55,252 nt of DNA. It comes from Perkinsus olseni. Taxonomy: Eukaryota. The stretch is from NCBI GenBank assembly GCA_013115125.1, contig JABANN010000186.1, forward strand, positions 1 to 55,252. Reading direction: 5' to 3'. The notes below the pieces were generated by a model that saw only the letters and a list, made by a program, of their open reading frames with translations, ran no database searches and was not told the origin of the DNA. This document shows, piece by piece, positions 5,053 through 48,440 of the stretch (the first letter of the stretch is position 1; every line of letters begins with the position of its first letter). The position numbers and the translations under genes were made by a program.

Positions 5053-6391
5053 ATGGTCCTCTCCGATGGTAACTTAACAATCATCGCCGAACTCTCCTGT
5101 CTTTTTCTTTAGCGATCTAAATACGTCGTCTATGCCTCCCTCGGTGTGGCGGCGGTACTTAGCGGAGTCATCGCCCGGGTAATAATTTCATTGTTGCAGC
5201 CTCTTTGCATCTTGCTCGCTTCGACCTTAGATACTCTACACTCAATGGCAATACTCATCACGTCTCGAGCATCTCTACGACGCTCTCGTGGCTGAAGGAG
5301 CTGCTCTACCCCCGCTAGAGGAGTTGACTCCGAGGTGACAAAAATCAGTAGCCCTATCGAATGCGGAAAGTGACCTTCGCTTTATCGTCTGGTTCCTGAA
5401 GTAGTCAACACTCGCTGCCATTAGCGTGTAGTATTACGTTCTTTGCTTGAGCAATTACCGCTAGAGGAAGTGATTCCGGGGTGATATAAGTCAACGCCCT
5501 AACGAAATGCTTTTTCGTCTGTGGTGCCTGTAGTAGCCAGCACTCATTGTGTGTGAGTTGTTTGTAATATTGCATGTGCGGTTGAGCAATGATCGGGTAG
5601 TAGATGTATTATATCAATAGGTAAGATACTGTGGTAGCTCAGACTGAAGAATTCTAGATCTATGTCGTTCTATGGTCTTGATTCGTGATTACACTGTTTT
5701 TTGTGATCGGTCGGTGACAGTTTTTTTTTTCACAGCTCGATGAGAAGTTCTGTACGTACGATCTTCCATGCGAAAGAATGGGACGCTTCAGCTAGTGCGT
5801 TCTGTATAGTGTGACGGTATTGGGAGGTTTTCGCACCCACATGTGCTTGTCGTAGACAGTCATGCTCGTTTAGCAATGCGGCTCCTGGGATTTGAACCGG
5901 GGCCATCTGCTCTTTTTCTCAGCTCGATATTCCCCGCTTCGCCAGTCCTGTCGGCCAACGATGCGGCCACGGCCCCAGTGTGGATCCTCTTCGCAGCTGT
6001 CCGATGGATGTCCTAAAAGCTGCACCTCTCGCACCCTTAAAGATACTCTCAGGTTGAATCAAGTTTTCTTGGCCGCGGCATCGGTGGTTGACCGTCTGCT
6101 CAGAACGATTGTTTGGATTCTTGTTGCTGTTGCCGTCGGTTATGGCGTTCTGAGGTAATTTCGTGGCGCGCGACAGTGACTGCAGTATCCACACTACCCG
6201 AATCTTTGAGCGATTCCCTGCAACAGTGTCTGTTCAGGCGTATGAAACCGGACTCGGAAGAAGACGTCACCGAGTCTGAGGGGACCGCCGAGGTCTCCCC
6301 ATCGGAATCAACAACAGTGAGCGGGTTCACCTTAACTTCGGACCCATACCGGAGAGTTCGACGGTCGCCCTCTGACGACTCACTTTGTTGA
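5053..6391 (+). CDS. Possible small multi-exon membrane protein(s)
   Basis: Hydrophobic exon-like segments (YVVYASLGVAAVLSGVIAR; RLLRTIVWILVAVAVGYGVLR|gtaat) and an acidic final exon (MKPDSEEDVTESEG...). Gene structure is uncertain. Confidence 0.3.
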
Positions 6392-7330
6392 AATGGGATT
6401 TCAATCATTGGGTTGCACGCATCTTAGCTTACTTCATGGTTGTATTAAATTTCTAGAGTGCATCTAGAAGTTCAGTCTAGCGTCTAGAATCGTCCAGGTC
6501 TCAATCTAGGCTTGATTCTACTGGTCACGCGTATACTATACGCCGTATAGGAAGCGGGCTTGAAATTCTCTCGATTGATTCCCTCGTTTTCTTAGGCCAC
6601 ATCCGAGAGGTCGACAAAGAGGGAAGAATTAGAGCTGAAGGTATCAGAGTTTTCGAGACGCCGCTCGGTCGAGGAAAGAAGCTCGGCGACGCTGCAGCGG
6701 CGACTGACAGATCCCTCCTGTAGTACGTTTGGGAATTCGACAAATTATGGTGATGGGCTTGAGGAGGTTGCGGTCCGACCAGCTGATGTTGATGGGAGGG
6801 TGCAGCGGCGGTACACTGATCCATCGAGAATTCAACAGGCTAACCGGGAGGCAGCGTTGAGGAATGTCGAGGTTGAGCAAGAGGAGCAAGATGCTCGTCG
6901 GCGGCGTGCAGCCATGCGGTATCCTTTTGGTTGGCAACCGGCAGCATTTAGGCTGCAGGGATGCCCATGGTACGGCCAAGGAGCTTACTGAGATGACCTT
7001 GATGAGGTTTGAACCCGGGTCGTTATCATGAAAGATAGCGGAGACCGCTCGCTCCGCCTCGAGGCTAGCGTAGCTGAGAGTTCCGTGAAGCATGCCGGCT
7101 TCGACTAGTGTCCAGAGGAAAATCCGAGCTCATCGTCCCTCATGATGGAGGCGACTTCCCCCATCTGGACCCGCCGTGATTTCTCCGTTCGTAGCATACT
7201 CCCCTGCACTTTCTATGCATCTTGAGAGTTTTGGGTTATGGTTGGTATGATCAGAGATGTGTGTTTTCTGACACCTCTAGCTATCGTTTGTCTCTAGATA
7301 GATAATTATTCCTGGTGGTAAAAATCCCTC

Positions 7331-9063
7331 ATGTCCTATTACACCCTCCACATCTTCGTCCCGTGCTGCTGCGCTATCATATGTGTAATTACCCCATGCA
7401 ATCGATCGATTGGTCGTCGACATGCTTGCTCGTTTCAGATGATAAGATTCTCCCTTAGCGGAGCTTACCATAGGGCGTTCGCTGGCGTGCCGTGTTTGAT
7501 CGATAAGATTATTCCTAAAGACTTGTCGCCGAAGACAATGCGAAAACTGAAGGAGAACATGTGGTAAGTTACGAAAGATGATGAGGGGAATCCTCGCGAT
7601 TAGAGTGAAGTGTGGTTCTAACAGGGTGAAGGTGGGGGAGGCCATCCGATCATGAGGTATGCCGTTCTGCGTCAGCCTGCGAACGGAGGCTGGCTCGGTT
7701 GAACAGCTATCTTAGTACTTGGGTGCAACGATGATCGTTGAACGATCTGTTGCTGGCGTGAATTACACGAACCCTTTGTATTCGCTCGGAAGGTGATCCA
7801 ATCGGGATGTAGAACCACTGGGCACGCCCGTTTCGCGTATGGGACAGAGTGCTACCAGTGTCATGTTCGAACGATGAGGGGGTCCTTCCAAGTAGATCTG
7901 CTTTTCGAAATCAAAATCATTTCTTCATCAATCACCGTCTTCTAGTCCCCAGTGTAACTCTGATTCTCGGGTCGAAAATGCTGCTCATATATTGCATGTT
8001 CTTAAGGGAAGCTGATCAATCTTTATCGGCTATGAGTCCTTTCCCCTCCATCCCAAGGTACTCTTGTTGGCATTCATTCACCAGCTGCTACGGTTTCTAC
8101 GTCCTCATGCACGAGCAATGGTTCAGCCTTAGCAGACTGCGCAGCGACCCCGTCGGGATGCTCTTCGGTGACCCCGATATTCACGACCGTTCTGTTGGGG
8201 TAGTATGAACGGCTCCCTCTTCGCAACATCAGTTTTTTCAAATCAGCTCGAACGCTACTACTTGGTGGAGATCAGCTTCTGGTGCAGCTGTCTCGCGTTC
8301 ATCGTAAGTTCACTGCGAGACGCTTCGCTCCGCCGTTATTGGAGTTTTCAGATGATCGAGACCATTCGCAAGGACTTCTACCAGATGGTTTTCCACCACA
8401 TCATAACCATCAGCCTGATGGTCGGCAGCTTCTGTAAGTGTCGTCAATGCTGGTAATAATGAAACAGCAATCTCCTTCAGACCTTGGCTACCATCGTATC
8501 GGTCTCACCGTCATTTTCCTTCACAACATCAGTGACGTGCCCCTCTACGTCGCCAAAACCCTCGGTTACCTTGCCGAAAAATTCGACTGTAAGATCTCCT
8601 CCTAGTCGACCGTGTTGCTTAGCTAATTGTTGGTAGGGTTGAAGACTCCGACAGACATCGCCTTCGCCAACTTCGCTTTCGGCTTCCTCTTCTCGAGGCT
8701 GTATGTTTACCCGAAGTGCTGTGTCATCCCTGCTTGCACCTTCGGTACTGTAAAAGTCGATTTTCCTTCTGATAATGGTATTGTTATTTCCTCAGCAATC
8801 GAGTATAAGCGTCCTATGAGGGACTGCATGCTGGTCATTTTCCTAGTGTTGCTACAGTGTCTCCACTTGATGTGGGCCAAGATGATTATCAAGATGATTT
8901 TCAAGACAATCAAACACCGCGGTGTCCTCGCGGTAACTCCGCCTGGTTCTCGTTGAATAGGGAAAATCGTTCATTTTAGGACGGTGATATCCGCAGCGAT
9001 GATGAGGGAGAGAGCACGCCAGCAAGCGAGAAGCCGATCGCTCACAAGAGGAAAGTACAGTAA
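7331..9063 (+). CDS. Ceramide synthase (LAG1/LASS, TLC domain), multi-exon
   Basis: Lag1p motif RKDFYQMVFHHIIT...GYHRIGLTVIFLHNISDVPLYVAKTL, FLFSRLYVYP, LQCLHLMW, C-terminal DIRSDDE and a terminal KRKVQ (KxKxx ER-retrieval-like). Confidence 0.9.
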
Positions 9064-11814: not shown

Positions 11815-13093
11815 TCAAATGATCTGCTTGATCTCCAAGAAGGCCCGCATGTAGTGCAATTGCAATGCCGCCAAGATCAGCACACTGGACAGATGTGCTA
11901 CTGTCCACCAAAGAACTCGAGAGTTCGTCGACTCTGCTGTGTCTGTCATGTTCGGCAAAAACAATCTCAACAGGATAGCGAGCAGCAATGCGCAGCTTAC
12001 TGCGATGCACCGCCTCTCTCGCAACGCTATAACGCTGCTGATCCATCAGAGTATCGACCTGTGCACGGTGATTATGAAGACCCACTTTACTACCTATTTA
12101 CTGTCGCACCTTGCTCTTCAGTATCTCCACGAGGTACTTCAGTTCATTGGTATGATCGGTGGTCGCCGCTTGGTCCCCCCCTCGTGACCCATTCTGGCTA
12201 TCGGATTTCTGGAAATAAAAGCTGTAATAGAAGCCTGGGCCCTTCGACCCCCTAGTGGTGAGTGGCACTCACCACTAGGGGGTCGAAGGGCCCACTCACT
12301 GAGTGCTATGTATTTGAGTTGCATTGGAAGCCTGTTGGGCTGGGCTGGGGTAACATGTACACAATTATTATCAGCCTCCGTAGCTCAGTCGGTAGAGCGC
12401 GGCCCTTTTAAGGCCGTGGTCGTGGGTTCGAGCCCCGCCGGAGGTGTTTTTCCAGCGTAAAAATCCGAGACGCGCGTTGCCTTGCGATTAGGTGACACGA
12501 TTACCTTCTCTATTCGAAGACTGAAACTAACTGTCTGAACGCCCTTCGTCCTCGAGGCAAAACATAGCTTGTACGTTCCTGGCTGGCCTGGCAACATTGG
12601 ATAGTACGTTACCAACCTCGGATTGCACATAGTACAAATTCGACAATACGCGCGCGTAAACTCACTGACGGGGACCGCTAGACGACCCTTGTGGTCGTGG
12701 CCCTCCCATACAGAACTGGGGGTTCCACCATCTACTCTCGTCACCGTGGCCACAACCCCTGAGAGGTGGCTGCATCCTGTCGATTTCCTACTCAGCTGCT
12801 TCGAACTTCTTAGCTCACCTTCGTAGCCGTTTCTCCCCACACTGTCATAGCTCCCTTCAATGACTGAGCCAGAATCCACTTCCGGGAGGCCGAAGCATTC
12901 AACTAAAGTTCAGAGAATGTCAAGCACGCACACTGTTAGTTCGATCTCTCCACTAGAACCTTCATGAGTAAAGAGCTCGGCTCTGCAGAGACTTACCCTG
13001 GGCGTGGGGCTTGAGTTCGAAGAACAGCGCCGCCACCTCTGACAGGTGCGAAACAAATCCGATGATACCGATGGTAGCAAGCTTGATCATCAT
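11815..13093 (-). CDS. emp24/gp25L/p24 family (GOLD domain) ER-Golgi cargo receptor, multi-exon
   Basis: Signal peptide plus LFFELKPHAQ|VECF, GTYKLCF...TVSFSL (GOLD), coiled coil VDTLMDQQRYSVAREAVHR, and ESTNSRVLWW-TM-YMRAFLEIKQII*. GT-AG junctions checked in frame for several introns. Confidence 0.9.
12236..12294. repeat. Perfect palindrome, 29-bp arms, 1-nt spacer
   Basis: TGGGCCCTTCGACCCCCTAGTGGTGAGTG-G-CACTCACCACTAGGGGGTCGAAGGGCCCA. Confidence 0.95.
12374..12446 (+). tRNA. tRNA-Lys(UUU)
   Basis: Full cloverleaf: acceptor GCCTCCG/CGGAGGT, D arm GCTC..GAGC, anticodon arm CGGCC-CTTTTAA-GGCCG, T arm GTGGG-TTCGAGC-CCCGC, followed by a TTTTT Pol III terminator. Confidence 0.95.
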
Positions 13094-13334: not shown

Positions 13335-16276
13335 TCACTTGTATTTCGCAAATTCGAGAGTCATTGCCTCGCAAGCGCTGCTGGCTTTGAATCCAATGTC
13401 GGCCTCTTCCGCTATTCTTGTCATCTCGTCATCAGTGAGCTCGAACGAGCTGACCGTAGTCATATTGGAAGCAACCCTTTTAAGGTTGCTTGTCTTGGGG
13501 ATCGTAACGATACCTGCGACGGCTAAAATCGTGGCAGCAAGTATGTTCCCGCTGCGTCGTCAGAACCGCTGCAGCGCCAAGCTGGACGCATACCAAAAGC
13601 GAATAACGTCTCTATTGTTAAACAGGGTCTCTCGGGCTAACTCCAATCCGTGCGCTTCAGATAATTGCCGAGCTTTGCTCACGACTTCGGGTGGGAGCGG
13701 CTGAGCTTGGTATTTCCTCGGAGGCCTTAACGGTCATACTCACAATGCACGACGCGCTCTCCGAAGCTCGTAGTACACGGGTTCTATGAGTGATGATGCT
13801 ATTATCATGAAAGCATATCATACATCAATACAGTGCGGTCGAAAAAGGGTCACAGCTTAAATGGTCCAGATCAGCTGTGGACAAAATTTTCCGACCAGAC
13901 TGTATCTATGATGAGGGATGATGCGATGAGAGTAATGACATTCTTCTTCTTCTTCTTCTTCTTCTTCTTCTTGTGCAGCACCCCTTCGACCGGGCAGGTG
14001 ATAGCCAGTATAGGGGTATAGCTGCGGGCTCAGTTGCTGCCTGAGCCCTGGTAGGAACATAGAGATAGCACGTTACACCGCACAGGGTACTATAGCTGTA
14101 ATGACATTAATCAATATGGGTACGATGATTGAACGGGTTTATAGATTGAATAAAAACGATTTAGCGGTGATGAGGGCCTCTGAGGGTTTCTGAGGGCGAT
14201 TGCGCCCGCACAATTACTACCAGATTGTAGTGCCCAACGGAGGCAGACATCAGCCTCCTGCACTCCATGAGCGGCTGCTACGTCCTGGACGACCCGATTA
14301 TCCTTAGAACCGAACATCTTGCATCGTGCTAGCGGGCAGAACCCCATGATCACTATGCCGTGTTTATCACAGTACCTGGGCTTGACGATTCTCAGTAATA
14401 ACCAGTCTGGCTGAGCGGGGCTTCCAGGACACCGACTACACTTGAATTTGACCATATTATGCGGCGGTTCATTTCATTTCTATTAGCTAAGAATTGGACG
14501 CAGAGACATACATCGCGAAGGGCTTGATGCAAGCATATGATCGAAAAGCATGATTCACAATATACTCTGGACCGAGTTGCGGGTCGAAATGGCCAGAGAG
14601 CCACGCCAGCCGAGAAGACGTCCCCCAAGCGGGCGTGGGCTACCAGCACTGCGCAGAGGTCCATCCCAAACCGGAGCGACGGAGGCGCGATGCGGGTGCT
14701 ACCTTCTAAGCTCTTTCTGCTGCAACCATGGGTGCAGCTCTACTTGGTTAACTGCTGGATACTCGTCTCCAGTGGCTTCAACCAGGTTTTCGATCTGCTC
14801 GATACCGAAGTTGGACACTCCGATAAATCGGCATTTCCCCTGAGATGTCAAACCTCCATCCCCACCACCTACTTTCCGAGGACCCAACACGGGAGAGAGA
14901 AGAAAAACTAATTGCGGTCTGCAATTCGCCGATGGGCAGGTCCTCGGTTCAGGGCGCGTGAGGGCGGGCTCTCATCATCATGGTACCCTGGCTTTTTTGT
15001 GCCATTTTCCCGATGGTCGGGTTAGCGTACTTCTGCAGTGCAGAAGTGAGATTCTGAGAAGGCACTGCGCGCCCTCATCATCACAATCCTCAGCCTCTCA
15101 TTTGATGCATTTTTCGATGGTTCTGTTAGCGTTCTTCTGTACTGCGTGGTGCGAGAATACGGCCGGCGCACCATTCAGAAGTGCGTTTTGTCAGTCACTG
15201 ACCAACGCACTTCCGAATGGTGACTGACCGTCAGTGGTAGAGTGGATGACTGTTAATCAGTAAGTCATCAATTCGAATCACGGCGCATCGACATCCGGCT
15301 CTGAGACCCGAACTGAGAGCCGGGCTCTCCACCTTCGCATAGTGGTATTTACGAAATTCGCATCAACTCATTTCCGCGCTGCGACAGCCGAGCCGCATTG
15401 TAGTATTCATAAAACCGTAACCTACATTTACTACCTCATGCCGAAGCCTCTTCAGCGTGCACCAAGTCTCCACCAGCTTCCCTCCGGCAGGGGTGTGTAT
15501 CAGTACCAAATCCGCATAGTCCGTCTTCAACTTCGCCAAGCTCTCTTCAATGCTCACTCTCGTCGCACGCTCGCCGTGATTCAACTGATTAACCTGAATA
15601 GTACCAAGCCACTATGGTATCGATAATGCCACCCATCAAGTATCCCTTTCGATCAAGCAATCCACCACACGGTGAAAGCAAACTCCGTTCGAGAAAATCC
15701 AGATAGGGGTTGCTCAACTAAAATGATTATTCCAATATTCCCCTCCATTCTGATTAAAGATGCGTCCCTGTAAGGTGTGTTAATCCCCCGGCGGACCATA
15801 TCGCGGCGCGCAGCACTTAACAGACAATTTCATATCACGATAGTCGCCGACACACAGCTCAGTTCCTGTCGACTCCGCGGTGGTACCGCTCGTTCCATCC
15901 CTCATTCTCGCATACCACCGCGCACCTTTATCCCCAGTGGCACACCCACCATGAACAGCAGGTACTAGTCAATAACTCTCTCACAGGTCTACTACACCAG
16001 TGAAGCATACCCAGCCGCTACTACCTTAGTCACAATAAAAATATCTTCCCTAAGGACCCCAGACTCCACCACGCCTTGCCCCACTTCCTCCTCGTTCTCG
16101 TACATCTGCGCTGTGTCGATCAATCTGTATCCACATTGCAGAGCATATTTCACAGCCTCTCGGCATTCACCGTCGTTCGCCAGCCACGTGCCGAGCCCGA
16201 AAGTCGGGATGCTGCCTCCCCCCTTGGAAGAAGCCAACTCCAGAGACTGCGGGGTGTCTGGCAAAGACGATGACAT
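13335..16276 (-). CDS. Aldo-keto reductase (AKR superfamily), multi-exon
   Basis: [82 protein letters not shown] and [11 protein letters not shown] occur across about 5 exons. Confidence 0.92.
13941..13972 (+). repeat. (TTC)n microsatellite in an AKR intron
   Basis: About 10 TTC units. Confidence 0.95.
15169..15222. repeat. Imperfect palindrome, ~26-bp arms, 1-nt spacer
   Basis: CACCATTCAGAAGTGCGTTTTGTCAGT-C-ACTGACCAACGCACTTCCGAATGGTG. Confidence 0.85.
15222..15290 (+). pseudogene. Degenerate tRNA-Asn(GUU)-like sequence in an AKR intron
   Basis: D-arm-like GTCAGTGGTAGAGT, anticodon loop TGA-CTGTTAA-TCA and T-loop-like TTCGAATC. Acceptor and T stems are broken. Confidence 0.6.
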
Positions 16277-16454
16277 TCTCAAGCTACTCCAATGCTGACG
16301 AATATAACCCAGTAGCTTTAACCTACGGCTCGCTGCCTTCAACAGGATTTTCTCATCACTATCTGCGTCGGATCTACACTTATCTGTTGCAACTGCAACA
16401 CAACAGTACCGTCAAGCGCCAGAATGGAGCAACTTTGTGAGACAGCAGAGAGTA

Positions 16455-17207
16455 CTAATTATTTGCAGTGCTAGTAGCAGAAGTAGTGGTGGTTGCATTG
16501 GGAGTGGTAGTGGTAGTATTAGTCGTGGTAGTAGCAGTAGAAGAGCAAGCAAAACAGGTACATGCAGGTATGGTAGCATTCTGGCAAAGATCGCATCCAC
16601 AACACTTAACATGATACTTATCATCATCACCCAATTGTTGATAAACTGGAAAATTCTTCCTCTCGCCAGACACAGAGGAAGAGGAGGGGCGTGAGATCGA
16701 AGGACCACCATACTCGTCGTTTCCGCTTGACAAATACTGATTATTACTTTTTGCTGATCTCGCTGCTGCTGATGCATTAATCAGCCTAGCAGGCACCACC
16801 GCTTGAGCGATATCATCCACACTGGTGTCCACGAATTCAAACCTCAGAATGAAAAAAGTCAGACGAAAAAGAACAATAATCAGCATCAAACACCTACGAG
16901 CAAATCCCATACCCAGCATGACCCCATCCAGTACCGCTGTTATCCATAAAAACAAATATCCCACCACCCGGAACGCTGTCATCCAAGTCAAATCCGATGA
17001 TTACAAAAGCATGTGACCCTTGGACGCGCAGTCGCTGCTGCTGCTGCTGCTGTTCCTGCTCCTGCTCGGTCGACTGAGATTGAGGGATGACGTCAATCGA
17101 ACTCTCGTAGTCACGACGTGGTCGTGGGCAAAATGGGTGCTATTCATAAAGCCATAACCGATATATGCCCATTCTCGAAACAACCAAATTGGACTACCCA
17201 TTTCCAT
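16455..17207 (-). CDS. Hypothetical membrane protein with Cys cluster and Thr-rich tail (multi-exon, structure uncertain)
   Basis: Hydrophobic helix FRVVGYLFLWITAVLDGVMLGMGF, KCCGCDLC...CTCFAC and a poly-Thr tail. Confidence 0.45.
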
Positions 17208-17340
17208 TATGCATCACTCATTTCCATGAACATATAATACGCCGCTCGAAAGTCTGGAATGTTTGGTACCCCGCGAACTGAATACAAGACTTTCTTCAAA
17301 AAAAAAGAAAGCGCTATCTTGAGGGAGCCTCTCTGCCGTT

Positions 17341-19978: not shown

Positions 19979-21971
19979 TTATAAAGCTGCCTCTTCTTGG
20001 GCGACCTCAGCGGCGGCCTTCCTGGCAGCTTCTTCTTCGCGCTCCTGTTTCCGCAATGCTGCCACTGAAAGGAAAACTGCCATAGGGGAGGAGAATAGAG
20101 TATCTTTGTATTTGCGTAATGCCAGCTTCAACCTATGATGCTCAATGATGAATCGCATGAGACATGCTAACTCTAGACCCCCTGTTCGATTCTGGGACTG
20201 AATTTTACACGTAAAATGTGGTACCAGAATCGTTCCTGAGTTTCAAAATTGGTTTACTGAGCACCTCCGGAATAACTGAGCTGACCTTAAACGATATCTG
20301 ATTATCACTAAGATACTATCTGAGGTCAGCTCAATGCAATCGATCGCGTGATCGATAACGAAGCAGATTTACTCACGTCTTTGGCGTTCCGGCTTCGGAG
20401 GTCGATGACGCTTCGATTTGCCAGTCGGGGGATGTTGCTGTTGAGGAGATGCTGCTGCTGCTCTGCCTTCGGGGACGATCGCGGACGCCGGTGAAACTGA
20501 GCCACATTGGGAACGCCGATGAATAGACGAAGATCCAAGAGAATCTTGGGTTGACGGTGGAGTCAGATAAAAAGAAAGATACTATTCCAAGGCACAGAGA
20601 ACCGCAGTAAACTTATATGTGAAAATCTTCGAGAAAAAAACAGAAAGACGTTCAGCATTATCTAGCTTTTCTAAACGCCACTTCGAACAATACCACACCT
20701 TCGCCATCTCTGAATTCCCTGGCGCGCGAGAATTGCCATGCCCTTACCCGTAGCGTTCGTTGCCTCGAAGTTCTCAGTAGTAGCAGTAGCAGCGACGGGC
20801 GCAGCTGCGCTCTCTCCTCCGTCCTCTGGGCTGGAGGGAGAGGCAGAAGGGGAAGATGCCGATCCCGAAATTGGAGTGTCCGCTTCTGTCGGTATGCTGA
20901 GCTCTGTCGTGGCTTCATCAGGTGTTGAGGAACCAGCAGGAAACCTGACCGCGCGCCACGAAATTGACAGCGCCACGGACGACATCAGAGAGGATCATAC
21001 ATACTGTCACAGCGCATACACTACCGCGCGCCACGAAATTCCTCCTACCCACTACGTCATCCACCATCACAGAATACACTACACGCACCGATCTACAAGG
21101 ACAGAATTTTCCCGCGCGCCACGAAATTACCCCCAAGCGGAGTAGCGAGGCCACCCCCCTCACCCTGTAGCTTCCTCACTCTCCGGCACTGACGATACCG
21201 GCGATGACGATGATGGGGTCGTCGGGGGCCTGACATAACTATACCGATCGAAGCCCATACATACCAGACAACTTACTCGGGTAGGTCCTTCGGTCTGCCG
21301 CGGTAGACAGGATCGTTAAACCGCAATTCAGGCACCTTCCGCTGGTACGCCCCCCTCCCTTCTCTCTCCTGCTCGACCACACCGTCCGTCGCAGCCACAG
21401 GACTTGGCGTCTCAGCAGTCGTGGAATCAGTCATCGGCGTTTCGACCGAGATAGTTAGCTTCTCTTTCCGAGATCTTGGCTGTTCCGTCGGCACTTCCAC
21501 TCTCTCCTCCTCAGCCGGGTAGTACACTCTCCTCACACTCTCATCATCGTCCGCCCTCCTGGTACTCCTGCCGCTGCAGCAACGACCGACCAGCCAGGCG
21601 GTCATGAGGCCGCCGAGGGTACCCCAGGCGAGGCCTAACCAGTACTCAACTCTACCGAAGACGGCGCGCATGTCGCCGCTAGCGAATAGTAGTTCTGCGC
21701 TCCCGGAGGAGATGACGTTCGCTAGAGCCTCGGGGCTCCACTCCAATTTCCCGCTTTTTCTATCAGTTTCGTCCTCATCCAAGTCGACCAGACACAGAGC
21801 ATAGCGACCATCACCATCACCAGCAGGCATGTTAACAGGGACGCAATTTCGTGGCGCGTGACGCTTCACCTCGTCCACCGCGGAGTCCATCCATTCTCGC
21901 AAGTAGGAGCATCCATGCTGGGGCCCGAGTATTGCTAGTATTATCGGAGCCAATGCGTAGAAGGGCGACAT
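19979..21971 (-). CDS. Putative signal-peptide/TM protein with Ser/Thr/Glu-rich tail, multi-exon
   Basis: ORF 21273-21971 has a hydrophobic N-terminus and a TM (WLGLAWGTLGGLMTAWLV) and ends at a gtaagt donor. Downstream S/T/E-rich exon-like segments and a last-exon-like AALRKQEREEEAARKAAAEVAQEEAAL* follow. Linking these into one gene is inference. Confidence 0.4.
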
Positions 21972-23815: not shown

Positions 23816-24409
23816 TCAGGAGCGAAAGTCGCCGCCCGCCCAGCGCTCAAGAGTACCACAAAGAACGCATCTCGTGAGATTGCGACTCACCTCCGATCTC
23901 TCGACTGACTGCATATCCCCAGAAGTTGTTATCGACCCATTTTGTATCATCTTTTGAGGTGCCCATAGTCTCCTCGGCGAGGGCGGTGGTGGAATGCGCT
24001 CTTCCATGGGTGCTGGCAGCGCCAAAGGTGGAGAAACCGGGACGGAATAATTTCCCAGGCCAGGATCGAACCCAGGACCTCCAGGATAGTAATCAACACC
24101 CGGACCCCACTGGACTGCTGCCGGCCTCGTTTGATAATACTCCTCCGCAAAATCCGTAGGTGTCACGTCGCCCACTCTGTAGAGAGCACGCTTAACCTTT
24201 CGATACTTCTCCCACTTCGCATACCCAAAATACGATGCCACCGTCAGTACCAGCCCACACGCAGCAACCACAAATATTTCCGGGCGCGCGAGAATTCCGC
24301 CACCCTCCTCCGACGGACTATCCTCCTCAACAACCTCTATCCAGCCTCCCACAGTCGGGAACCTGCCACGGATGCCTCCTAACCCACTGACGAACGAAAC
24401 GAATTTCAA
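23816..24409 (-). CDS. Hypothetical single-pass membrane protein with Pro-rich tail
   Basis: TM IFVVAACGLVLTVASYFGY followed by a basic stop-transfer KWEKYRKVKR and a P-rich region. The true start is unclear. Confidence 0.45.
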   Translation of the reverse strand: MKFVSFVSGLGGIRGRFPTVGGWIEVVEEDSPSEEGGGILARPEIFVVAACGLVLTVASYFGYAKWEKYRKVKRALYRVGDVTPTDFAEEYYQTRPAAVQWGPGVDYYPGGPGFDPGLGNYSVPVSPPLALPAPMEERIPPPPSPRRLWAPQKMIQNGSITTSGDMQSVERSEVSRNLTRCVLCGTLERWAGGDFRS

Positions 24410-25089
24410 TTTCAGAGCTTCGCTCCGCTAAAGACGCCGATGATTTTCACAATCAATTCCGCATACAGCAAACGACAGGCCGCAACGACCTAACCCGACA
24501 TGCGTGATACTGATACCGGGTCAGACCAGGCAGACCTATGCAGTGACTAAGCCCGCAGCTATACCCCTATGCTGGCTATCACCCGCCTGGACGAAGAGGT
24601 GCTGCGAGAGAAGAAGATACTGATAGAAGTCTGAATGAGTACAGTCGGTTACCGGATGCTTCTATCACTAGGAGACAGGAGAATTGCGAACCCACACAAT
24701 CACATATTTCCAGAATTACCCTACCACTCTTCCCCCACTACCCTCGATAATGTGAGATACTCGTGCATGTCACCAAATCGCATAGACACAAGGCGAACCG
24801 GCCCGGCGTGTTCACCACCATGGACTGCACTCCATCGCCACATAGGATGGCAGCCGAGGTTGACCCTGGCTGATCACAGCGTGCCTGAAGATTCCATCAT
24901 CAATCTCTGCATCAATCGTTACCAATAAAATTGTCAAACCTGTCTGTCCGCTTGCTAAACGTTTCACTTGTGATTCGCTCAATCTACCATGTCTCGCGTG
25001 TTTAATTACATTTGCACTCAAAACAAGTAGTCACCCATATAGAAAAATTCTCGCGCGCCACGAAATACACTAACCCTCGTCGCGTTAGA

Positions 25090-28000
25090 AGTCCCTGCTT
25101 ACCCCATTCACCCGGACGCCATCCGACCTTCCACAGGGCGAGACAGCAGAAGTCACAGTTTCTCCAGGATACGATACTATCATCAACCTGTCCCGAGACG
25201 GGTCCAGATCAGATCCTCTTATCAGAACCTACTGAGGGAGGAAACTGCCGGTTGTGGTAGGCATCATCAGCAGCCCTAGGCCTTCCTCTTAGCTTAGCAA
25301 GGATAATCCCACCATTACTACCCGGAATGGCTTCCCAACTTCTACCCTCGCCGGGCTGGTTACAGCAGAATCCAGTCGAGCCATCAGACACCTGAACCGG
25401 GAGGAAAAGGATATTCAGCGAGACACGGAGAATTTCGAGCTCAGAGAGAAAGCCACGCTCCCTATAAAAATAAAAAAATTTGGATTTAACTCCGCCGAGG
25501 GTTCGGGAGTTACTTGAAGGAGCTGCATTTTTATGACACCGGGCTCAGCCTGTCAAAAATTCGTGGCCAAACTTTCACTGCATCGAAAGCACCCACACCT
25601 CGCTTAAACCCACTTCACAGGAGACACCGCCGAGGGCTCCCATTTTCGAGACAGGAGGCGACTCTGTTCATTACTCTTGTTCGTTGCACGACACTTCTCC
25701 CTGCAGGTCGGCCGCAGGCGGGCACTCGACGCCGCCGCCGCTAGCCTGACGGATAATTTGCCGTCGCCTGGATAGAACCTGCGCGGGTTAGGCTTCAAGG
25801 TAGAGAAAATATCAACCAGGACGCCTACCCCTCCACCACAACTTCTGCTGCAGCTCCCAACGACTATCCATCCTCCCAGCTCGCAGTCGACCTCCGTCTT
25901 CACATCAACCACACCCACGTGCTTTTGACAGGCACCACCGTTGCTCTCAAAACACCAACAAACCTACCACCACCAAAACCAACACCGATTCGATACCCTC
26001 TAAAACAGCCCACGGCTCAGTAGTAGACGCCATCTTGATCGAAGAAATCAATCTCAAGCCGCCCGGAAACAGGGGCACTCATATTTTCACGAAAAACAAC
26101 TCAATCCAAGATAATCTCGTGGCGCGCGACATTTTTGAATGGAAACGGAATACTCCGTGAATACCATAAATAGCGTGCTACATGACTCTCCCTCACTACC
26201 TGCAATTCCCCCTCCTCCATCACCACAGCAGGGACCTCGAATTCCTGGTAAGTTTCATTAACAACCCTCGGACCATCTCCCAGGCCATCGTAGACAACTT
26301 CCCCACCGCAATCGCCGCCCCTCGTCAATTGGATGCGGTTCCCAGTGGACAGACCGAGGCCTTCGACGACTACTGTGGAGGACTCGCCAGGAACCGCTCT
26401 GGTCCGGTCGAAGAAATTCGCAGAAGCACCGATTGCTCGGATCGAACCCAGGACCTCCCAAAAGGCGCACTCATTACCATCGTTATAGAACCGTTCGCAA
26501 AAACAGGCCGTAAAAACCCCAACCTTTCTGATTGCAATTTGCCTCGTGGGACTCTCAAACTCACAGGATCCAAATGCTCCACTTGCACACTTGACGCCAC
26601 TCACCATTTCCTCAACGCTACTCGAGCAGGACCCTCCACCAACAATCTTCACCGAAGCGTTCGCGTCGTATCCCGCAGCCACCGGCATCACAAACGGTTC
26701 ACCTTCGCGCGCCTCGAAATTATCGCCAATCCCCGAGGGCGCCTCTCCTACAGTCGCCAACAGCCCTCCCCGATCATTCGGTGACACACAGCAGGTAGCG
26801 GAAGTATCCACGCACCACACCCTCACCACCCCGCCCGCCGAGAGTGCTCCTGAATCCAATTTTAAATGAACTTGAGCGCTTCGCTCCGCTAAGATTCGAT
26901 CCGGACGTCGACCGGTACCAACGCAGGTCGGCAAGATACCATAACAGTCCATAACGGCATCCCAAGTAGGAGTATCCGACTGCTCCTCAGAGGTCGCCGC
27001 ACACACAAGATTCCCTCCATCTTCCCCGACCTCCACCACTACCGTCAGGGCGCGCGCGGTTGCAAGCAGTGTCTGAAAAAAATTTTTCAATTTCTCATCC
27101 GGCGGTCCGCTTTCCGAATCACTAGCCGAAAATCGAGCCATGATCAATTCTGCACGAACACGATTTCCGCAAAAAAACCCTATCGGAGATACCGGAAAAT
27201 TATCGGCAGCTAATCTGCCGACCGGTAGAATGCATTGTGAGAATTGCTTCGGAAACCCCGATGGCCAATGCCATTCAAAATTCCAATTTTAACGAAAATA
27301 CATTCCCGAAAGTTGCACAATTTTATCACCACTTAAATTTCTGACAATTTTACCAATTTCCCCCGCCGTCAATCTCCAAAAAACTCAAAAATAATCGCTC
27401 CGCTCCGCTCACCTCATCCAGCCGTATGCTCATGATAGCTCCCCGAACCACAAGTTCTCCAACCGTTTGAACATACTCCTTCCCGGCAAAAGTAGAATGA
27501 CACAAAAATGGCGAACCTCCACCAACCGCCGCGCAATAACAAATTTTAAACCGCCCCGCCGAATCTGTTATCGACCCATCAAATACAAATTTCGCTCGCC
27601 ACAATCGATCAACCGTTTCATCTGATGATATTCTTTCAATACTCTCAGCTCTCGCCGGAGCCATCACTTGTCGAATCTCATCTCCCCCGCACTCCATTTC
27701 GCTCGGAATCGCCACAACTTTATCCGCCACAGAAATTTCCAATCTCGAAACAAGTCCAAATTCGCAAAGTCCAGAACCATGCGAACACTCAATTGCTTCG
27801 CTCCGCCTTATCACTCCCCTCAAAGCCAGCCGACCAGCACTGCTACACTCCTCAGACACTCGGCAATGGCATACCATAACTTCACCAAATGAAGTATCTT
27901 TCACCGAGCCAAGGTCGTAGTGCAAAGATACCGATCCACCTTCGCTAGGTAGTATCCATTCCACCACAGAATTCGAGGAGACACCAACAAAATCAAAATT

Positions 28001-30768
28001 CAAGTCGAATGCCTTCCGGCCAATCGTCTCAGTAGCATTCGGGCAGCCGAGAAAATTCGTAATATTAACAATTTTCAAAGTGTCTCCAAGACTCAGCTCA
28101 ATACCGCTGATTCTCACCTTGCAACGACTGCCAAAGTAACAGAGATGCTGAACGGCCGTACTGTCGCCTCCTGCGGACGCCCCCGCAACCACCAAGTTCC
28201 CCACTTGGTTAGCAAAGTCGGACGGCAAAGCACACACTCCGAAGCCTTGGCAGTAGCACAGTCTCCACTCGCCTGAGAGAGTCCAGAAAATAATTTCGTG
28301 GCGCGCGAACTTGGATATAACAGTGCCATCCGGCCTGTCTAGTTCGACACTGACCACAGAGTGTATTTGTTACTGAAGTTAGTGCGATAGAGTAAATGGA
28401 CGATCACACAGACGAGAGTCGACCAAATGCACGCCTCTCGACGAAACTTGTTCGCAGAGAATTTCGTCGTAGAAATTCTAGTTTTGCTTGGATAAAAGAT
28501 ACGAACATTGAACATCGTCGTCATTGAGATTTCCACTTTTCCTCAACTCACCAGCACTATTAGGCGTCGGCAGGTCATAATACAACTCCGACAAATCAGC
28601 CACCTCTTCCTCAGTCAAGCCACTCTGTTCCGGCGTCAAACTCGCCGCCATCGGACCATCTCGCCAACGGTCGTAATCGTGAGAAGCGAAACCACAGTGG
28701 GAGTTCGTTCCCAGTCGGACCAGCCATATCCTGTCAGTCATCGCCGACAGCCTTCCTCCCGACGATCGCACCGCCACTCGGCAGTCCCCACTCCCGACCA
28801 TACAAAAGACGTCGTTACCAGCAGCCTCCGCTGTCCTCACCGTGGCCGCTAGCGGAGCGAAGCTCGACATGTCCGTACAATTAGCGCCATAACCACACCA
28901 ACACACATTCCACATACCCACCTCCTCGATAACCACTCTCCTATAAACCTCCTGAGTCTCAGTAGAAGCCGCTGCGTCCGGCGCGAAGGCCTTCCCATAG
29001 AAATCCGTCGCGCCGCACTTCGTCGTATTCGGCACCACCATCACCCGATCCCTCAGCGCCGAGAAGACGTTACTGGAGCTGCTCACTACGAGCTCGAATG
29101 GGCGCCTCGCCACCTCCCTCTGAGCGAATTTCGGCACCTCCGGTCCGGCCACGGTCACCAATCCGCAGTCGACAGAAAAATCTTCGACTGTCGAACAGGA
29201 ATGACCGCACCAGCAGACTCTGAATTTTCCCGCGCGCCCAAAAATTATCCCGTCCCAGCTAGCCCAGGAGCCATCCACCGCCACACGATCGTGGCGGCCT
29301 CTAGAATTCCTCACAGTCTCAGGGAACAAAATTACATTCGCCGAGCCGCAACCTTGACTGCTTAGCGGAGCGAAGCGAATCTCGCTTTCAATATTATCGA
29401 ACAGGTTGCCCGTCGCGAGGATGGTGACGCTGGTCGGCAGAGTCACCGACGGACTCCACAGCTGGTTAGGCTGAGGACCGACCACTGTGACGGTGCCGGC
29501 GAAAACGGCAAATTTCGAATACTCAAGACAAGTAGAATACCCACACCAACATAACAGAAAACTTCCCGCCGCTGGGATTCGAACCTGGGACCAGAACTCC
29601 ACCAAGTCGTCACTGCCGACATCCCGCGCCGCCAGATGGACGCTTGTCACGGGCGCGTCACCAGACCCACACCCTCCTCCGCCTTCCGCCAGCACTCTCA
29701 CTCGATCTGTCCCTCTAAGACCCCGGCCATATACAACCAGCGAGCCCGGCACGCCAATCTTCAACCTAATATTATTTTCGCTCGCGTACGGCCCAGCGAC
29801 CATCAGCCGGCCGACTTCCACGTTGAAATCAGCATCAACCATACAACCACTACCGCGGTAGTCACCATCGGCACACCAGCAAATCACAAACTCCCCTGCA
29901 GCAGTCGCCAGGACCCCCTCCCACACCTCTACTGTGGACGTGGACTGACTTGATCGCGCCGAGGCAACAGACACCGATACCGACTGAGACGCCCCCAAGC
30001 CGCAAATTCCGCTGCCGATGAAAATTCTATCACCGTCACGAAGATTCACACCGGTATAGGAGATATCTATCGCCTGGCCGGCGGGAGTTTCATACTGTTG
30101 CCCGACCAATGGCCCCCCTACGGTGACATTAGCAGTCTCGTTGACGGTGGACGAACGCCCGACTGTGAAGGAGAAGTCGCCCCAATCAGCACAGGAAGAG
30201 CGAACGCTAAAGTCGCACGCACAGACTTGATAGGAGGTGGACACATTGAGAGTGATTGGGCCGCAGAAAAGTTTGTCGTGCTGAGAGCCTGGATTGCCAC
30301 AGGGCACCGCAGCCCAACCTGATACGGTGGACGGACTCTGCCAGCCAGAGACCTGATGGACGAGAGGAGAAATCACGCGATTTCCCGCCACAGTAGTTCA
30401 TTTCCGCGCGGCTACCTCAGGCAACTACGTATGATAAAGAGTCATCCATTGATCGCGAATAGCAGCACTATTGACCAAAGTAATCATACCGAAATTCCTG
30501 GCAGCCCTCGTTCACAAGAAGCGATACGACACTGTACGAAATATATGACGTTCAAGATGCTCTCAGTTTCAGGAGGAACACCCATAACAGTGGTGTGAAG
30601 GAAAGCGTCCCTTACAGGAGTGGACAGAAGTCCATTGCCACAACCCCGTCCATATTCTATCAGGACCACCCTATCGTCATACCTCTCGAAGCCAGTCCCG
30701 AAGACTGTGAGGTAGAAGGGTAGACCTACGACAGGCATCACAACATAGTAGATCCCAAGCTTTGACAC
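25090..30768 (-). CDS. Very large multi-exon protein of tandem ~110-aa Cys-containing beta-rich repeats (probably extracellular)
   Basis: Long ORFs 28478-30391, 27350-28357, 26101-27147 and 30484-30768 share a repeating G-x-[FW]-x-[VIL]-C-[WYF]-C ... DF...G.[LV].V.GP signature. Confidence 0.7.
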
Positions 30769-34990: not shown

Positions 34991-36342
34991 TGAACTCCAA
35001 GGGTGGTACTAAGCATGACCTGAGCATCGGCCTTACGCGCTAGCTCACGACTCAGGAGATCACGCTGCCCCTCCCCTTGAGTTGTATATCGGCGGGTCGG
35101 TAGAAAGAGATCATTGGCGTTGGTGGTGAGGTGTATAGCATCTACTAGGGTATTATACTCAAATTTCAGGCATCAATTCGAATCCATGAACGTATTAGAG
35201 GTCGCACACCACTTATGCTGAGAATTTGTAGAGGGTTGTACACAATGAGTCATTGTCAATGACGCGCAAGTATCAGAGTAAGTACATTCTCGGCACCACA
35301 ACTCAATCCTGGTCACAATGCCAGAAACACGAAGTCACCATGTTACTGTTTCGAAGGCCAGCGTCAAGCCCGCCCAGGTTTCCATTCGATTCTTAAACAG
35401 TATGGACAGCAGATATGGCCTCCGTTAGCTACCTGAGTAGGATTAAGCTTGACAAGGCTTGAACGACGAACAGCGCTGAGATTCTCCAGTGGAGTTGGCA
35501 AGTCACAAAAACGGTCGCTCGTACTTGAGCTATCCTTGCTGCGTGAGGTCCGAGGTAGTTCCTATTGAGGATTCCTTTTTGCTGTTTGTGCCCGGTGCCG
35601 AACTCCGTTAAGGTCTCCAAAGTCTGAGAGTAACCTAGTAAACCCGTAGACCGTCCCTCTGGATGTCTTTCCGCCATCCCCCGCACTCACCACCCACGTC
35701 GCCTCGCCCGGCATATGCTTACTAATGAACAATTGCATCACTTCTTTCATCGTAAACTGAGGAAATCACGAGATTATCGAGGAGCTCTCGAGGACGAGCC
35801 TCAAATCAAAAATATGCTTCAGCAAGTGACTAGCTCAGCTTCCTCAGTTCACCATGCGAGCCTCGGCCAAGATGAAGAAATGCTCGTCCCTCAGTACTGG
35901 TTCCCAAGAGAGGCCCTGACCACAAGCCACTCCTATTTTTCTCTACCTTCCGATGGCAGTTGCCGCAATGCAACGTGTGATGAGCTTTCCTCAGTGGGTC
36001 ATCTCCTTTCCGCTCGGTCCTAATTTGGTTGTAGCGAAACAACAGCGGCCTCGCGGCCGCGAACAGTCCTGGACGCGGCACGAAAACCCTGCCGAGCAGT
36101 CGAACCAACTGTGAATAGCTGCCCGGCATGATCGAGCAAACGAACAAACTACACACAAGAGTCACAGTATTAGCCATCTCATCGATCGCCTTCATTCGCC
36201 ACTGAAAGCGATTCACTAGGCGCTCCACAAATTCACGGAAGACCGAACGAGACTCGACGGTTCAAAGAGGATAGAAACCTGCTGTCGGTGCGATGAATAT
36301 GCACAACCGACTGTTGTAAGCAATAGAATATACGTAGAACAC

Positions 36343-41260: not shown

Positions 41261-41617
41261 GGAGAAACCTTGGTGGAACAAGTGGGAAAAGCTATGGTGA
41301 TGGGTGATCGATTGGAGGAAGCGCCGTCGACCTTAACTTCTTTCGTATCTTGCACGCTCGACCTCAAGATACCTGCAAGGGGATATTATTTACTCCATGG
41401 AACACAATCCGCGCATGATAGCCACGCGCGACACTCGCTAGTGCCTGGGCGTCGGGTCGACACAAAGCGAATTTCGTGGCGCGCGACACTTTTCATTCAC
41501 TCTCGTCTCTTGCGGGAAATTCTCGCGGGTCTATTGGATCCTAGGAGCGGACTCTTTTCTGAAGAATAAGGAATTTTCTTGAAGAAGTCCCTCCCCTTCG
41601 CCTCGCCCTCAGTAACA

Positions 41618-41707
41618 GTGGCCACTTAAGGGAGATCATGTGAAACTTACTAACACTTGAAACGCCCCTTAAGTGACCACTTAGTGGAGGTCATGTGAAA
41701 TAGGGCC
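41618..41707 (+). mobile_element. Right-end fragment of the Harbinger-like MITE family
   Basis: Closely similar to 54711-54805, for example GAAACT(T/C)ACTAACACTTGAAACG and TAGTGG.GG.CATGTGAAATAGG.CC. Confidence 0.8.
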
Positions 41708-41815
41708 ATGGAGCGCGTCTACCACCATAAACGCCCGGTATAATTCCGTTCTTACTCGAGAAGACCGCCCGGAACCGTCGGCATTCGAGTAGTTTTCTCT
41801 CGCCTTCCGTCCACG

Positions 41816-46220: not shown

Positions 46221-48440
46221 ATGACTTCTCCCATCGAAGCAATGGCCGGGCCGAGCTTCACCAGTCGGACCTCGACTCAGCGCCGCGGAGACGATGATTT
46301 CTCCCCGGCCTACTATTACTTGAAGGTCTACGTTGGTGGACTGCCTCGGGGAGCCACAGAGGCGGATGTAGTTCAAGGGAAGGGATGTGTTTTCTCGGCT
46401 TGTGCGATGGCCGGAAGTGCTTATTTTCAGAAAATTTGGCAAAAATCTTTTGTGGGAAAATTTTTTCGCGGGGTGACGGTATGTAGTTTTGTCGTTATTA
46501 ATACAATGATATTGAGTATTAGATAATGACAACAAAAGTGATGCTGAGACCAATCTATGGTGTTTTTTATACGGCGAATTTGACTGGCCATCTCCGATGG
46601 TCTGTATTCCATCGGGACTTGGTTATTGCACGGAGCAAGTTTTGCTATGATCGTTGAAAGTTGCGATTTCTTTGGTACGAATATAGCCCAGGGGATTATG
46701 AATTATGCAATTTACCTGAGTCTATCTCTGAGACGTGTAAGTAGTCCGTTGATTGAAAATCTCTCTCCAGTTGCCATTTGGGAACAAGTAAACTGTTACT
46801 TGAGAACAAACTCCCGCGGAATTAAGTATCTGAGGAATCTTTGCTATGCGCAAACTCAGATGCTGAGCTACTTCTCACGGTATGGCCCCGTAGCTGACAC
46901 CTGGCTGTATCGGTCTTCCGATCCGGCCAAGATGAACTTGCCTCCGTACGGATTTGTCACCTTCCGTAACGCCGCAGACGCTGATGCTGCTGTCGCGAGC
47001 GAACACGATTACCAAGGGGCGCACACTCTGCAGGTGAGAGGATTGGGCGAGAGGACGGAGGTTGTCTCAGTATCGGTTGAGAATAGCCTACCTTTACAGT
47101 AATAGCCTAGCTACATCCTACACGTACCATAAGTAGATCGTACTGCTAGTAATCAGGATTACATTTAATTATCATTATTAAATTACGATTACAATTAATT
47201 AGGGCATCGTAATTAAGATCCGCTACATTCTCCTACTAGTAACTAGTAACAGCTACAGTAATTAGTCTCAGTAATAGCCCTCTGAGGAATACTGAGACTT
47301 CTCAACGTACAGGGCGAACAAGCAATTCGTGAACTTTCGGAAAAGTTTCAATCTTTGCGATTCGCAGAACGAACTTGTTCACCCTGTGGTCCCCAACTCT
47401 GATAAAAACTCGCACAGCGTGAAAACAGGACCGGCATTCTTTGGAGCGGAGGTTGCGGGTGTTTCGGAATACGCGAGTTGGTGGTCTCTTCGAAACTCAT
47501 TCTGTGGAGAGAAATATGTCCTTCGTTCGTGGGGCGCGATACCGTTGGGGAGCAGCAAGGTACGTAGTGCGGGAGTGTGCCGTGCCCGTACCGTAATTTC
47601 GTATCATCACGTGCGCGCTGTGAGGCTTCATGGGCAGGCCCTTCTCTGGTAGGAATAGTGATCAGGTTAACTACGCTACGATGAAGAAGTCAGCGTCCTC
47701 GGCTGGAACGTTGGAATCGGCAATACCGAGTGGAGCTTTGGACGAGTCAGCTGTGGGCTCAGTGGCCGCATCAGGCTTGACGATTGCTGGGGCCACTGAA
47801 ACTGAGCTGGGAGAGTTCTTCTCGCAATGGGGATTGGTAAGTACGGGGCGTTAACTGTGCGTCACATTTGTATAGTGGATGGCGGCAGCGTTATCCCATG
47901 GATGGTCGCGGGTTCCATCCGTGGCTGTGGTATCTTCTGCTAAGAAAATGATTGTGTTGTCCCTGCGATGCTCGGCTGCAAGCATAGCCCTCCTTCTGGA
48001 TCGCCCGTCGAGTATACGACAGCGTTGCATTCTCCTCGGTCAGTTCATCATGTGTGTTAAACTGTCACTTGATAGTATCCACCCAGCCCCTTCAAGAATT
48101 GAAGTCGTTGACGACGGGGTGCATAATCTCTGTCGTGTTTTGGTGTTTCTGTTCTCCGAGCGCTCGAGCTCAGGCGTTGTTAGTGTTGAAGTCAGCCGAG
48201 GAACCCTCTAGTTGCCTCGTACAGTACTCGGCGAGGGAGGGCGCGGTGAGACTCCTAGCAGAACCATCGTTGAGCTTCAAGGTAAGGGGAATTTCGTGGC
48301 GCAGTGACGATAACTTGTCCTCGATCAGGGAGCAGCAATAACGGTAACGCAACGTGATGTGCCGGCCAATCTAGGCTATGATGAGGAGTATCTTGTCCGG
48401 AGAGCGACAGCTCGGCATAGAGCGAAGGCAAGGAGTCCCT
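46221..48440 (+). CDS. RNA-binding protein with RRM domain(s), multi-exon
   Basis: RNP2 KVYVGGLPRGATEAD | MLSYFSRYGPVAD...YGFVTF (RNP1), and a second RRM-like GLTIAGATETELGEFFSQWGL...CLVQY. The 3' end is approximate. Confidence 0.75.

Follow-up and report, generated by a model that had tools for sequence, protein, structure and literature searches.

What makes a 16-nucleotide (nt) word recur in the introns, the coding exons and the flanks of neighbouring genes? This question is raised by a 55,252-nt stretch of Perkinsus olseni DNA (GenBank assembly GCA_013115125.1, contig JABANN010000186.1, positions 1 to 55,252 of the forward strand; referred to as the window), in which a dispersed, quasi-palindromic motif, the 'ARHEI' word, had been noticed from the letters. 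Perkinsids are the sister lineage of the dinoflagellates and include notifiable shellfish parasites, and to our knowledge almost nothing is known about their gene control. The original prediction proposed either a protein-binding, chromatin or replication-origin signal or a tiny self-propagating element, an interpretation which our analysis supports in part. The best reading here is a protein-binding signal that acts on DNA, and we tentatively regard the motif as a set of putative sites for a dimeric DNA-binding protein, held by selection in gene bodies.

The recurrence lies far above chance, as had been claimed. Matches to the A-type word, AATTTCGTGGCGCGCG, were counted at up to two mismatches across the window and compared with 100 dinucleotide shuffles, which yielded 11 matches against 0.02 expected, a number that none of the 100 shuffles reached. 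Six copies are exact (starting at 6157, 20950, 21025, 21113, 28292 and 41470), four have one mismatch (21845, 25052, 26113 and 26706) and one has two (20713). A B-type word, AATTTTCCCGCGCGCC, matches five times (0.03 expected), exactly at 21105 and 29223 and with one mismatch in all three tandem 82-bp units of a minisatellite. For the general half-site AATT-N3-5-GCGCGC the window has 17 matches against 0.21 expected, and roughly half of the approximately 30 GCGCGC positions stand in such a context. The earlier list of copies was broadly right, and the variants which it placed at 20713, 24274 and 29223 and in each 82-bp unit (19516-19756) are real. It missed the copy at 26706, the position 25046 that it gives marks the second half of the copy at 25052-25067, and its copy at 48290 agrees with the 16-mer in the first 13 of 16 bases only.

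Some contigs suggest that other loci outside the window carry the word, because RNA and DNA contigs match the window just across a motif copy (with ends at 20964, 21025/21045, 21040 and 21865) and then run on unlike it, spanning at least four different contexts. Literature searches listed no account of such a motif in Perkinsus, and a string search with four 10-12-mers of the motif matched 47 papers, of which the 15 listed were all unrelated as judged from title and abstract start. A metagenome scan for the 16-mer returned at least 120 stretches; all 80 of the 80 loci listed hold one match each, which is chance level for a collection so large, and no multi-copy Perkinsus-like contig was among the matches listed.

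The copies were placed by means of RNA contigs, deposited gene models and orthologues, which bear out that the motif occurs in both introns and coding sequence (CDS). The RNA evidence consists of Logan contigs of four runs, mapped over positions 15000-34999, where stretches without contig cover are uninformative either way. Eight of the 11 A-type copies are intronic (6157, 20713, 20950, 21025, 21113, 25052, 26113 and 28292), two lie in conserved CDS (21845 and 26706) and the last (41470) is found upstream of a NAP histone-chaperone gene; a further coding site is the B-type dyad at 29223-29246. RNA joints cover six of the eight intronic copies, and the remaining two were placed through homology.

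Most of these copies fall on two adjacent genes. Gene A (minus strand, 19778-22003) has, according to RNA contigs, exons at 19778-20064, 20377-20496, 20748-20944, 21164-21228 and 21276-22003, and contig depth over it is 614 in run X1, compared with at most 77 in bins over neighbouring genes. The joint of its intron 20497-20747 is present in four of four RNA runs, and the 82-bp array starts 14-22 nt past 19778, the last base under its RNA contigs. Gene A is the deepest-covered gene of the 20 kb mapped, has contigs also in three runs labelled as another organism, and encodes a Ser/Pro/Thr-rich product of 387 amino acids, in which one stretch is hydrophobic and no Pfam domain was recognized. Gene B (23.4-31.2 kb) corresponds to the deposited P. 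olseni protein FOL46_002628. RNA contigs give its introns 24885-25102 and 28273-28551, with GT..AG ends on the minus strand, and the rest of its structure follows other P. olseni isolates (91-94% identical) and P. chesapeaki (62%), with intron 25964-26199 inferred from the orthologue alignment and GT..AG ends. The 83-nt intron 6155-6237 of a ceramide-synthase-like gene was placed from the deposited model P0021, whose junction GYGVL/RRMKP matches GYSLL/RRVRS in P0022, the orthologue from P. chesapeaki. The NAP gene (Pfam NAP, E 1.1e-41) does have a copy upstream of it, as had been stated, about 215 nt from the likely ATG and on the opposite strand, and TTTCCCGC stands at 41512-41519, 27 nt further upstream. 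The copies and their variants are as follows.

6157..6172, plus strand: exact A-type copy, sense, at intron positions 3-18 of the 83-nt intron 6155-6237 of the ceramide-synthase-like gene (plus strand).
19569-19592, 19651-19674 and 19733-19756, minus strand: three minisatellite dyad variants, one per 82-bp unit, each AATTAATGGGCGCGCGGGAAAAGT.
20713..20734, plus strand: complete dyad variant AATTCCCTG-GCGCGC-GAGAATT, at intron positions 14-35 of intron 20497-20747 of gene A.
20950..20965, minus strand: exact A-type copy, sense, 5 nt upstream of the acceptor of intron 20945-21163.
21025..21040, minus strand: exact A-type copy, sense, in the middle of intron 20945-21163.
21105..21128, minus strand: full dyad of A half and B half, AATTTCGTGGCGCGCGGGAAAATT, starting at position 36 of intron 20945-21163.
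21845..21860, plus strand: A-type copy with one mismatch, antisense, in the CDS of gene A exon 1.
24274..24296, plus strand: weak variant in gene B CDS encoding GILARPEIF, with 13 of 16 bases of the A type and a single AATT-N3-GCGCGC half; taken alone it could be chance.
25046..25067, minus strand: dyad of A half (one mismatch) and GAGAATT, sense, from position 36 onward of intron 24885-25102 of gene B.
26113..26128, plus strand: A-type copy with one mismatch, antisense, at positions 72-87 of the inferred 236-nt intron 25964-26199 of gene B.
26706..26721, minus strand: A-type copy with one mismatch, sense, in conserved CDS of gene B.
28292..28307, plus strand: exact A-type copy, antisense, 19 nt from the acceptor of intron 28273-28551 of gene B.
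29223..29246, minus strand: complete dyad of an exact B half and a AATTTTTGG half, in conserved CDS of gene B.
41470..41485, plus strand: exact A-type copy, about 215 nt upstream of the likely ATG of the NAP gene (minus strand).
48290..48305, plus strand: partial copy, the first 13 of 16 bases followed by GCAGTG, preceded by GGTAAGGGG.

The copies follow a grammar of half-sites. Across the 17 copies aligned, no bases are constant apart from AT (of AATT) and GGCGC; among the non-A copies the spacer is variable. The half seen most often is CACGAAATT, the 'ARHEI' word, next to which GGGAAAATT, GAGAATT, CAGGGAATT, CCAAAAATT and CCATTAATT occur, so that at least six half-site types are present overall. 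Five loci have both halves around GCGCGC, in differing combinations: A CACGAAATT and B GGGAAAATT (21105-21128), A-type CACGAAATA and C GAGAATT (25046-25067), D CAGGGAATT and C GAGAATT (20713-20734), B GGGAAAATT and E CCAAAAATT (29223-29246), and B-type GGGAAAAGT and F CCATTAATT in the minisatellite dyads. About half of the sites have one good half only. Inverted halves that are held at a fixed distance around a centre, and that exist in interchangeable variants, are expected of a dimeric DNA-binding protein, whereas copying of one sequence would not yield them.

Three copies lie in coding exons, in three different combinations of frame and orientation. The antisense copy at 21845 in gene A occupies the codons CGT CAC GCG CCA CGA AAT TGC (RHAPRNC), in an exon which is covered by contigs of four runs with no differences, and the gene A homologues P0019 (96%) and P0020 (64%, with SHTPRNC), which start upstream at MSPFY, show no indel. 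The sense copy at 26706 in gene B occupies AAT TTC GAG GCG CGC GAA (NFEARE), opposite DFVARE in P. chesapeaki, where the V is the residue that an exact motif would encode, and the dyad at 29223 occupies ATA ATT TTT GGG CGC GCG GGA AAA TTC (IIFGRAGKF), opposite VIFVRAGKY in P. chesapeaki and AAGEF/AAGSF in paralogous repeats, in both cases without an indel. None of the three thus carries an indel relative to homologues that are 62-66% identical. Given the peptide and the codon usage of the gene, the probability of the codon choice is 4.4e-3 at 26706 and 4.5e-5 at 29223. Because of the three frames and orientations, the missing indels and the unlikely codons, the recurring unit in exons is a DNA word and not a peptide, and did not enter them through insertion. 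A tiny element spreading through insertion, as had been proposed, does not fit these three copies, which are indel-free relative to both homologues and paralogous repeats. The peptides beneath the coding copies are old, being conserved in P. chesapeaki and P0020, which argues that the coding copies are old as well. The genes of the proteins FOZ60_008135, FOZ62_010944 and FOL47_007398 are orthologous loci, next to the homologue P0020.

Outside the motif, the copies have no more in common than random parts of the window. In 91 pairwise comparisons of the 60-nt flanks of 14 copies, the mean local scores were 7.1 and 6.9, against 6.8 and 6.8 for random window pairs, and the maximum was 12 against a null 99th percentile of 11-12. 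The flanks are therefore unrelated, as had been claimed, and lack the longer homology of a transposable element remnant; being no more alike than random pairs, they argue against an ordinary repeat remnant. The highest score, 12, which equals the null 99th percentile, belongs to the right flanks at 21025 and 21113, where the 21025 copy is possibly a local tandem duplicate of the 21113 copy, with GTAGTGTAT downstream common to both. Local folds gave z-scores of -0.23 to +1.17 versus shuffles for eight of eight copies, none of which is more stable than the shuffles, and a cruciform or hairpin was rejected on these scores. An Rfam search found only a tRNA-Lys at 12374-12446 and no match at the copies even at E values up to 10; an origin from a fragment of a tRNA, snRNA or other RNA gene found no support in these RNA-family searches.

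In the reading that we tentatively prefer, the motif represents dyad sites on double-stranded DNA, which would be read by a sequence-specific protein binding as a dimer. Each half-site consists of a GCGC core, 2-5 variable bases and (A)AATT, the two halves overlapping in the central GCGCGC. The sites are found in either orientation, both in introns and in coding exons, with others in a 3' flank and in one region close to a promoter, and they cluster on the two adjacent genes; selection on the DNA word may keep them, including through codon choice in CDS. The effect would then fall on the transcription or the chromatin of the host genes, and one candidate binder, not an established one, is an E2F/DP-type winged-helix protein that reads CGCG cores. 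Besides the enrichment, the mixed dyads, the bipartite conservation and the coding copies described above, we count in favour of this reading that the 10 transcribed A-type copies obey no strand rule (six sense, four antisense), that a single-strand fold and an Rfam family were both missing in the searches described above, and that a motif copy together with TTTCCCGC lies upstream of the NAP histone-chaperone gene.

Several observations weigh against dimeric binding sites. Six copies are identical across 16 bases with sharp edges, a tighter agreement than at most transcription-factor sites and one that resembles copying. Of the 13 independent loci, ten fall within 19.5-29.3 kb, or 18% of the window (binomial probability roughly 6e-6 by our own arithmetic), four of the five gene-B copies have an extra ATAAT on their left, and the three copies in intron 20945-21163 may reflect tandem duplication; the clustering and the ATAAT flank also fit local copying. 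Furthermore, most sites lie in gene bodies instead of promoters, the common A half fits no consensus tested, and the support for enrichment outside the window is limited to the contigs with loose ends.

The main rival is accordingly built on copying without function: the word would have spread, or been made uniform, through gene conversion over short tracts or through templated repair of breaks from other copies, a form of molecular drive in which near-cognate sequence is overwritten, even in CDS, without change of length, so that the word propagates itself minus the insertion. This is an unlikely explanation, with several points on its side, namely the sharp-edged identity of six of the 11 copies, their strong clustering, the shared ATAAT flank, local tandem duplication both in intron 20945-21163 and in the 82-bp array, the lack of indels in coding copies, and the heavy break-and-repair traffic visible in nine exact hAT-type scars in the window. 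The dyads, however, mix at least six half-sites, unlike the output of copying a single word, and the conservation of the peptides under the coding copies in P. chesapeaki and P0020 argues for age. General local copying also predicts many word families, whereas a survey at k=11 gave only two strong ones in the window; many private local words, as expected of general local template switching, were not seen at that length. Finally, we know of no process in which conversion tracts of 16-24 bp act between dispersed sites without flanking homology.

A more familiar possibility is that the copies are ordinary E2F/DP cell-cycle promoter sites, some of them tandem or inverted, which reach into the gene bodies of a compact genome; this we consider rather improbable. 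E2F/DP proteins contact a CGCG core, which counts for it, as do the right halves at 26706 and 28292, which read GCGCGAA, and the joint presence of a motif copy and TTTCCCGC upstream of the NAP gene. The likeness to E2F sites noted in the original prediction holds for the rarer B half, which contains TTTCCCGC in five of five copies, and fails for the A type: none of the 11 copies fits TTTSSCGC, as the A-type half has three extra bases between the T run and GGCGCG. This consensus is not clearly enriched in the window relative to shuffles, with 12 matches, five of them the B-type copies, against 7.71 ± 2.35 expected; at least that many were present in 5 of 100 shuffles. With respect to position upstream of cell-cycle or replication genes, only one of the 11 A-type copies, the promoter-proximal one at 41470 (NAP), lies upstream of a gene, whereas 10 are in introns or CDS; the minisatellite dyads, between genes A and C, are variant copies not counted among the 11. 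At 16-24 bp, the conserved span is likewise longer than the 8-12 bp of the consensus. The motif may thus work like an E2F/DP-type site without being filed as one. A yeast-type G1/S box also resembles the A half. E2F/DP1 is absent from the apicomplexans studied, with the exception of Cryptosporidium, according to one report (PMC4117751).

Action of the word in RNA is improbable to a similar, slightly greater degree. A splicing factor or another RNA-binding factor could recognize it, or copies of opposite orientation within one pre-mRNA could pair over 16 bp and thereby loop out introns or exons, for which the intronic position of 8 of the 11 copies, the occurrence of both orientations in gene A and in gene B, and the inverted copies 20713-20734 and 20950-20965 flanking exon 20748-20944 speak. 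An intron end is no more than 35 nt away from six of the eight intronic copies, including the one in the 83-nt intron, where any position qualifies, and one copy begins at donor position +3. This bias is weak, however, as it is a trend over non-independent copies with a probability of about 0.03 for five of seven by our own arithmetic. Several copies had been described as closely following a GT donor; this stands at 6155, where the GT is the donor of the 83-nt intron in the deposited model and the P. chesapeaki orthologue, and fails at 21131, since RNA contigs of all four runs splice from 21163, 35 nt upstream. An RNA role is further opposed by the lack of orientation bias and of a local fold, and by copies outside transcripts, in the minisatellite past the 3' end and upstream of NAP. 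All four RNA-covered introns that bear the motif are spliced by ordinary GT..AG, and no back-splice or skipping joint was reported in the contigs.

The remnant of a decayed transposon, miniature inverted-repeat transposable element (MITE) or introner, with the word as terminal or transposase-binding repeat, is highly improbable: the word is short, quasi-palindromic and mostly intronic in a genome with much cut-and-paste transposon traffic, and begins at intron position 36 in both 20945-21163 (219 nt) and 24885-25102 (218 nt), but the flanks are as alike as random window pairs, these two introns resemble each other nowhere else (score -32 outside the motif versus -35.9 ± 5.5 for shuffles), target-site duplications and paired inverted ends around a common body are lacking, the coding copies are indel-free, and none of 15 hAT-type scars overlaps a copy.

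The corresponding candidates were also examined individually. For a transposon or MITE remnant, homology beyond the core, indels in coding copies and any duplicated flank in the flank listing were all lacking. A common introner origin of introns 20945-21163 and 24885-25102 was rejected for want of likeness beyond the motif. Contrary to what an introner element more generally would show, the two motif introns are unlike along their length and have the motif at one end only or in direct orientation. A hAT excision footprint was rejected because of the 0 of 15 overlap (9 exact scars). The scars themselves are 22-nt fold-backs of 7+8+7 geometry, in which bases 1-7 of a sequence X are followed by the reverse complement of X and by bases 2-8 of X. 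Nine are exact (6529, 7726, 18188, 31212, 34755, 35242, 45781, 51496 and 52996) and six more have one mismatch.

The window contains further repeats and genes. Long, near-perfect palindromes with arms of 29-37 nt and a 1-nt centre are located at 12236-12294, 17341-17403 and 53340-53414, and in one RNA contig the stretch 17347-17415 is missing between non-canonical CA..GG ends, which probably reflects a hairpin artefact and not an intron. The 1710-nt intron 33168-34877 (RNA joint in three runs) includes IYMDDIILYSD, a putative reverse-transcriptase motif that probably stems from a retroelement fragment. A repeat family that resembles a transposable element, composed of AAGTGGCCACTT palindromes and TGAAATAGGCCCC, occupies 1140-1175, 41617-41710, 53921-53960 and 54540-54810, and a duplicated segment of about 350 nt (50569-50912 versus 54806-55161) has blocks that are 85-100% identical. 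The run of 71 G at the contig end (55182-55252) is probably a sequencing or assembly artefact. An open reading frame elsewhere in the window corresponds to an aspartyl protease, and its closest database matches are P. olseni proteins. The deposited models of gene B and of the ceramide-synthase-like gene look incomplete: the gene B model P0014 lacks approximately 250 residues (27076-28105) which are encoded in the window and kept in the proteins of other isolates, and P0021 (382 amino acids) ends before the TLC-domain exons, its P. chesapeaki orthologue (633 amino acids) matching 7448-9060.

Two other words recur in the same part of the window. The word GCTTCGCTCCGC(TAAG) is found at 8322, 22016, 22118, 24417, 26878, 27397, 27795, 28852 and 29365, with six copies exact and nine at up to one mismatch, eight of the nine within 22-29.4 kb. 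It is located in introns, 13-24 nt upstream of the RNA 5' end of gene A, and in conserved gene B CDS in several frames (SFAPL twice, LAERSA and RRSEA). Each of the four exonic ARHEI-type sites has such a copy 136-174 nt away on the gene-upstream side (21845/22016, 24281/24417, 26706/26878 and 29223/29365); these are four of the seven sites in 21.8-29.5 kb (permutation P 0.0011, with a window chosen after the fact). A composite element of ARHEI and GCTTCG words was rejected, the intervening sequences being unrelated. In addition, a 20-mer that resembles a tRNA T-arm, GGAGGTCCTGGGTTCGATCC, lies on the minus strand at 24053-24072 and 26429-26448 in conserved gene B CDS, in two frames (GGPGFDPG and EVLGSIR), and both peptides are kept in P. 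chesapeaki.

A wider and more doubtful proposal is that P. olseni runs a small vocabulary of long, exact DNA words through its gene bodies, as part of a genome-wide system of DNA recognition or drive that acts on coding DNA. Its words would be the dyad, GCTTCGCTCCGC and the B-box-like T-arm word, placed in conserved CDS in several frames with codon choice bent to keep them, and in the window the exonic copies of two of them are set 136-174 bp apart, at roughly nucleosome spacing. If true, this would be a eukaryotic counterpart of bacterial uptake words or architectural words. A constraint on CDS at the DNA level, if real, would alter how synonymous-site selection and gene models are read in these genomes, and a word of 16-24 bp is specific enough to serve as bait for its binding protein and to be counted and mapped in any Perkinsus assembly.

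Known systems share some of these properties. The introners of Amoebophrya and other MITE-like introners, as one study describes them (PMC7789003), also place repeated sequence in alveolate introns, sometimes near splice sites; they carry inverted repeats at either end of the intron and direct repeats spanning its junctions, and resemble one another throughout a family, whereas only 16-24 bp are common to the motif copies, which are found in introns with ordinary GT..AG ends, in CDS and outside genes. Like the motif, the footprints of hAT elements are short palindromes in the non-coding DNA of this genome, but in these one geometry is combined with a different sequence at each site, while the motif is one sequence at many sites. 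Bacterial over-represented words such as DNA uptake sequences, which drive or selection maintains, resemble the motif as exact words of 10-16 or more bases with sharp edges, in several coding frames, without indels and in either orientation; they differ in being bacterial and linked to uptake, and we know of no comparable process in Perkinsus. Lone B-box or 'extra TFIIIC' sites, represented by the tRNA T-arm word GGTTCGATCC, are likewise short, exact words in gene bodies in either orientation, and in the window the B-box-like word and the motif both occur in conserved CDS in different frames, although the sequences are unrelated and the motif is a dyad with no RNA-gene source in the searches made. 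E2F/DP sites, finally, which are often palindromic about a CGCG core, have a consensus of 8-12 bp compared with the conserved 16-24 bp of the motif, which lies mostly in introns and CDS instead of promoters; they share with it a core of alternating C and G, runs of T or A beside this core, dyad symmetry and one copy upstream of a histone-chaperone gene, and the B half fits them exactly.

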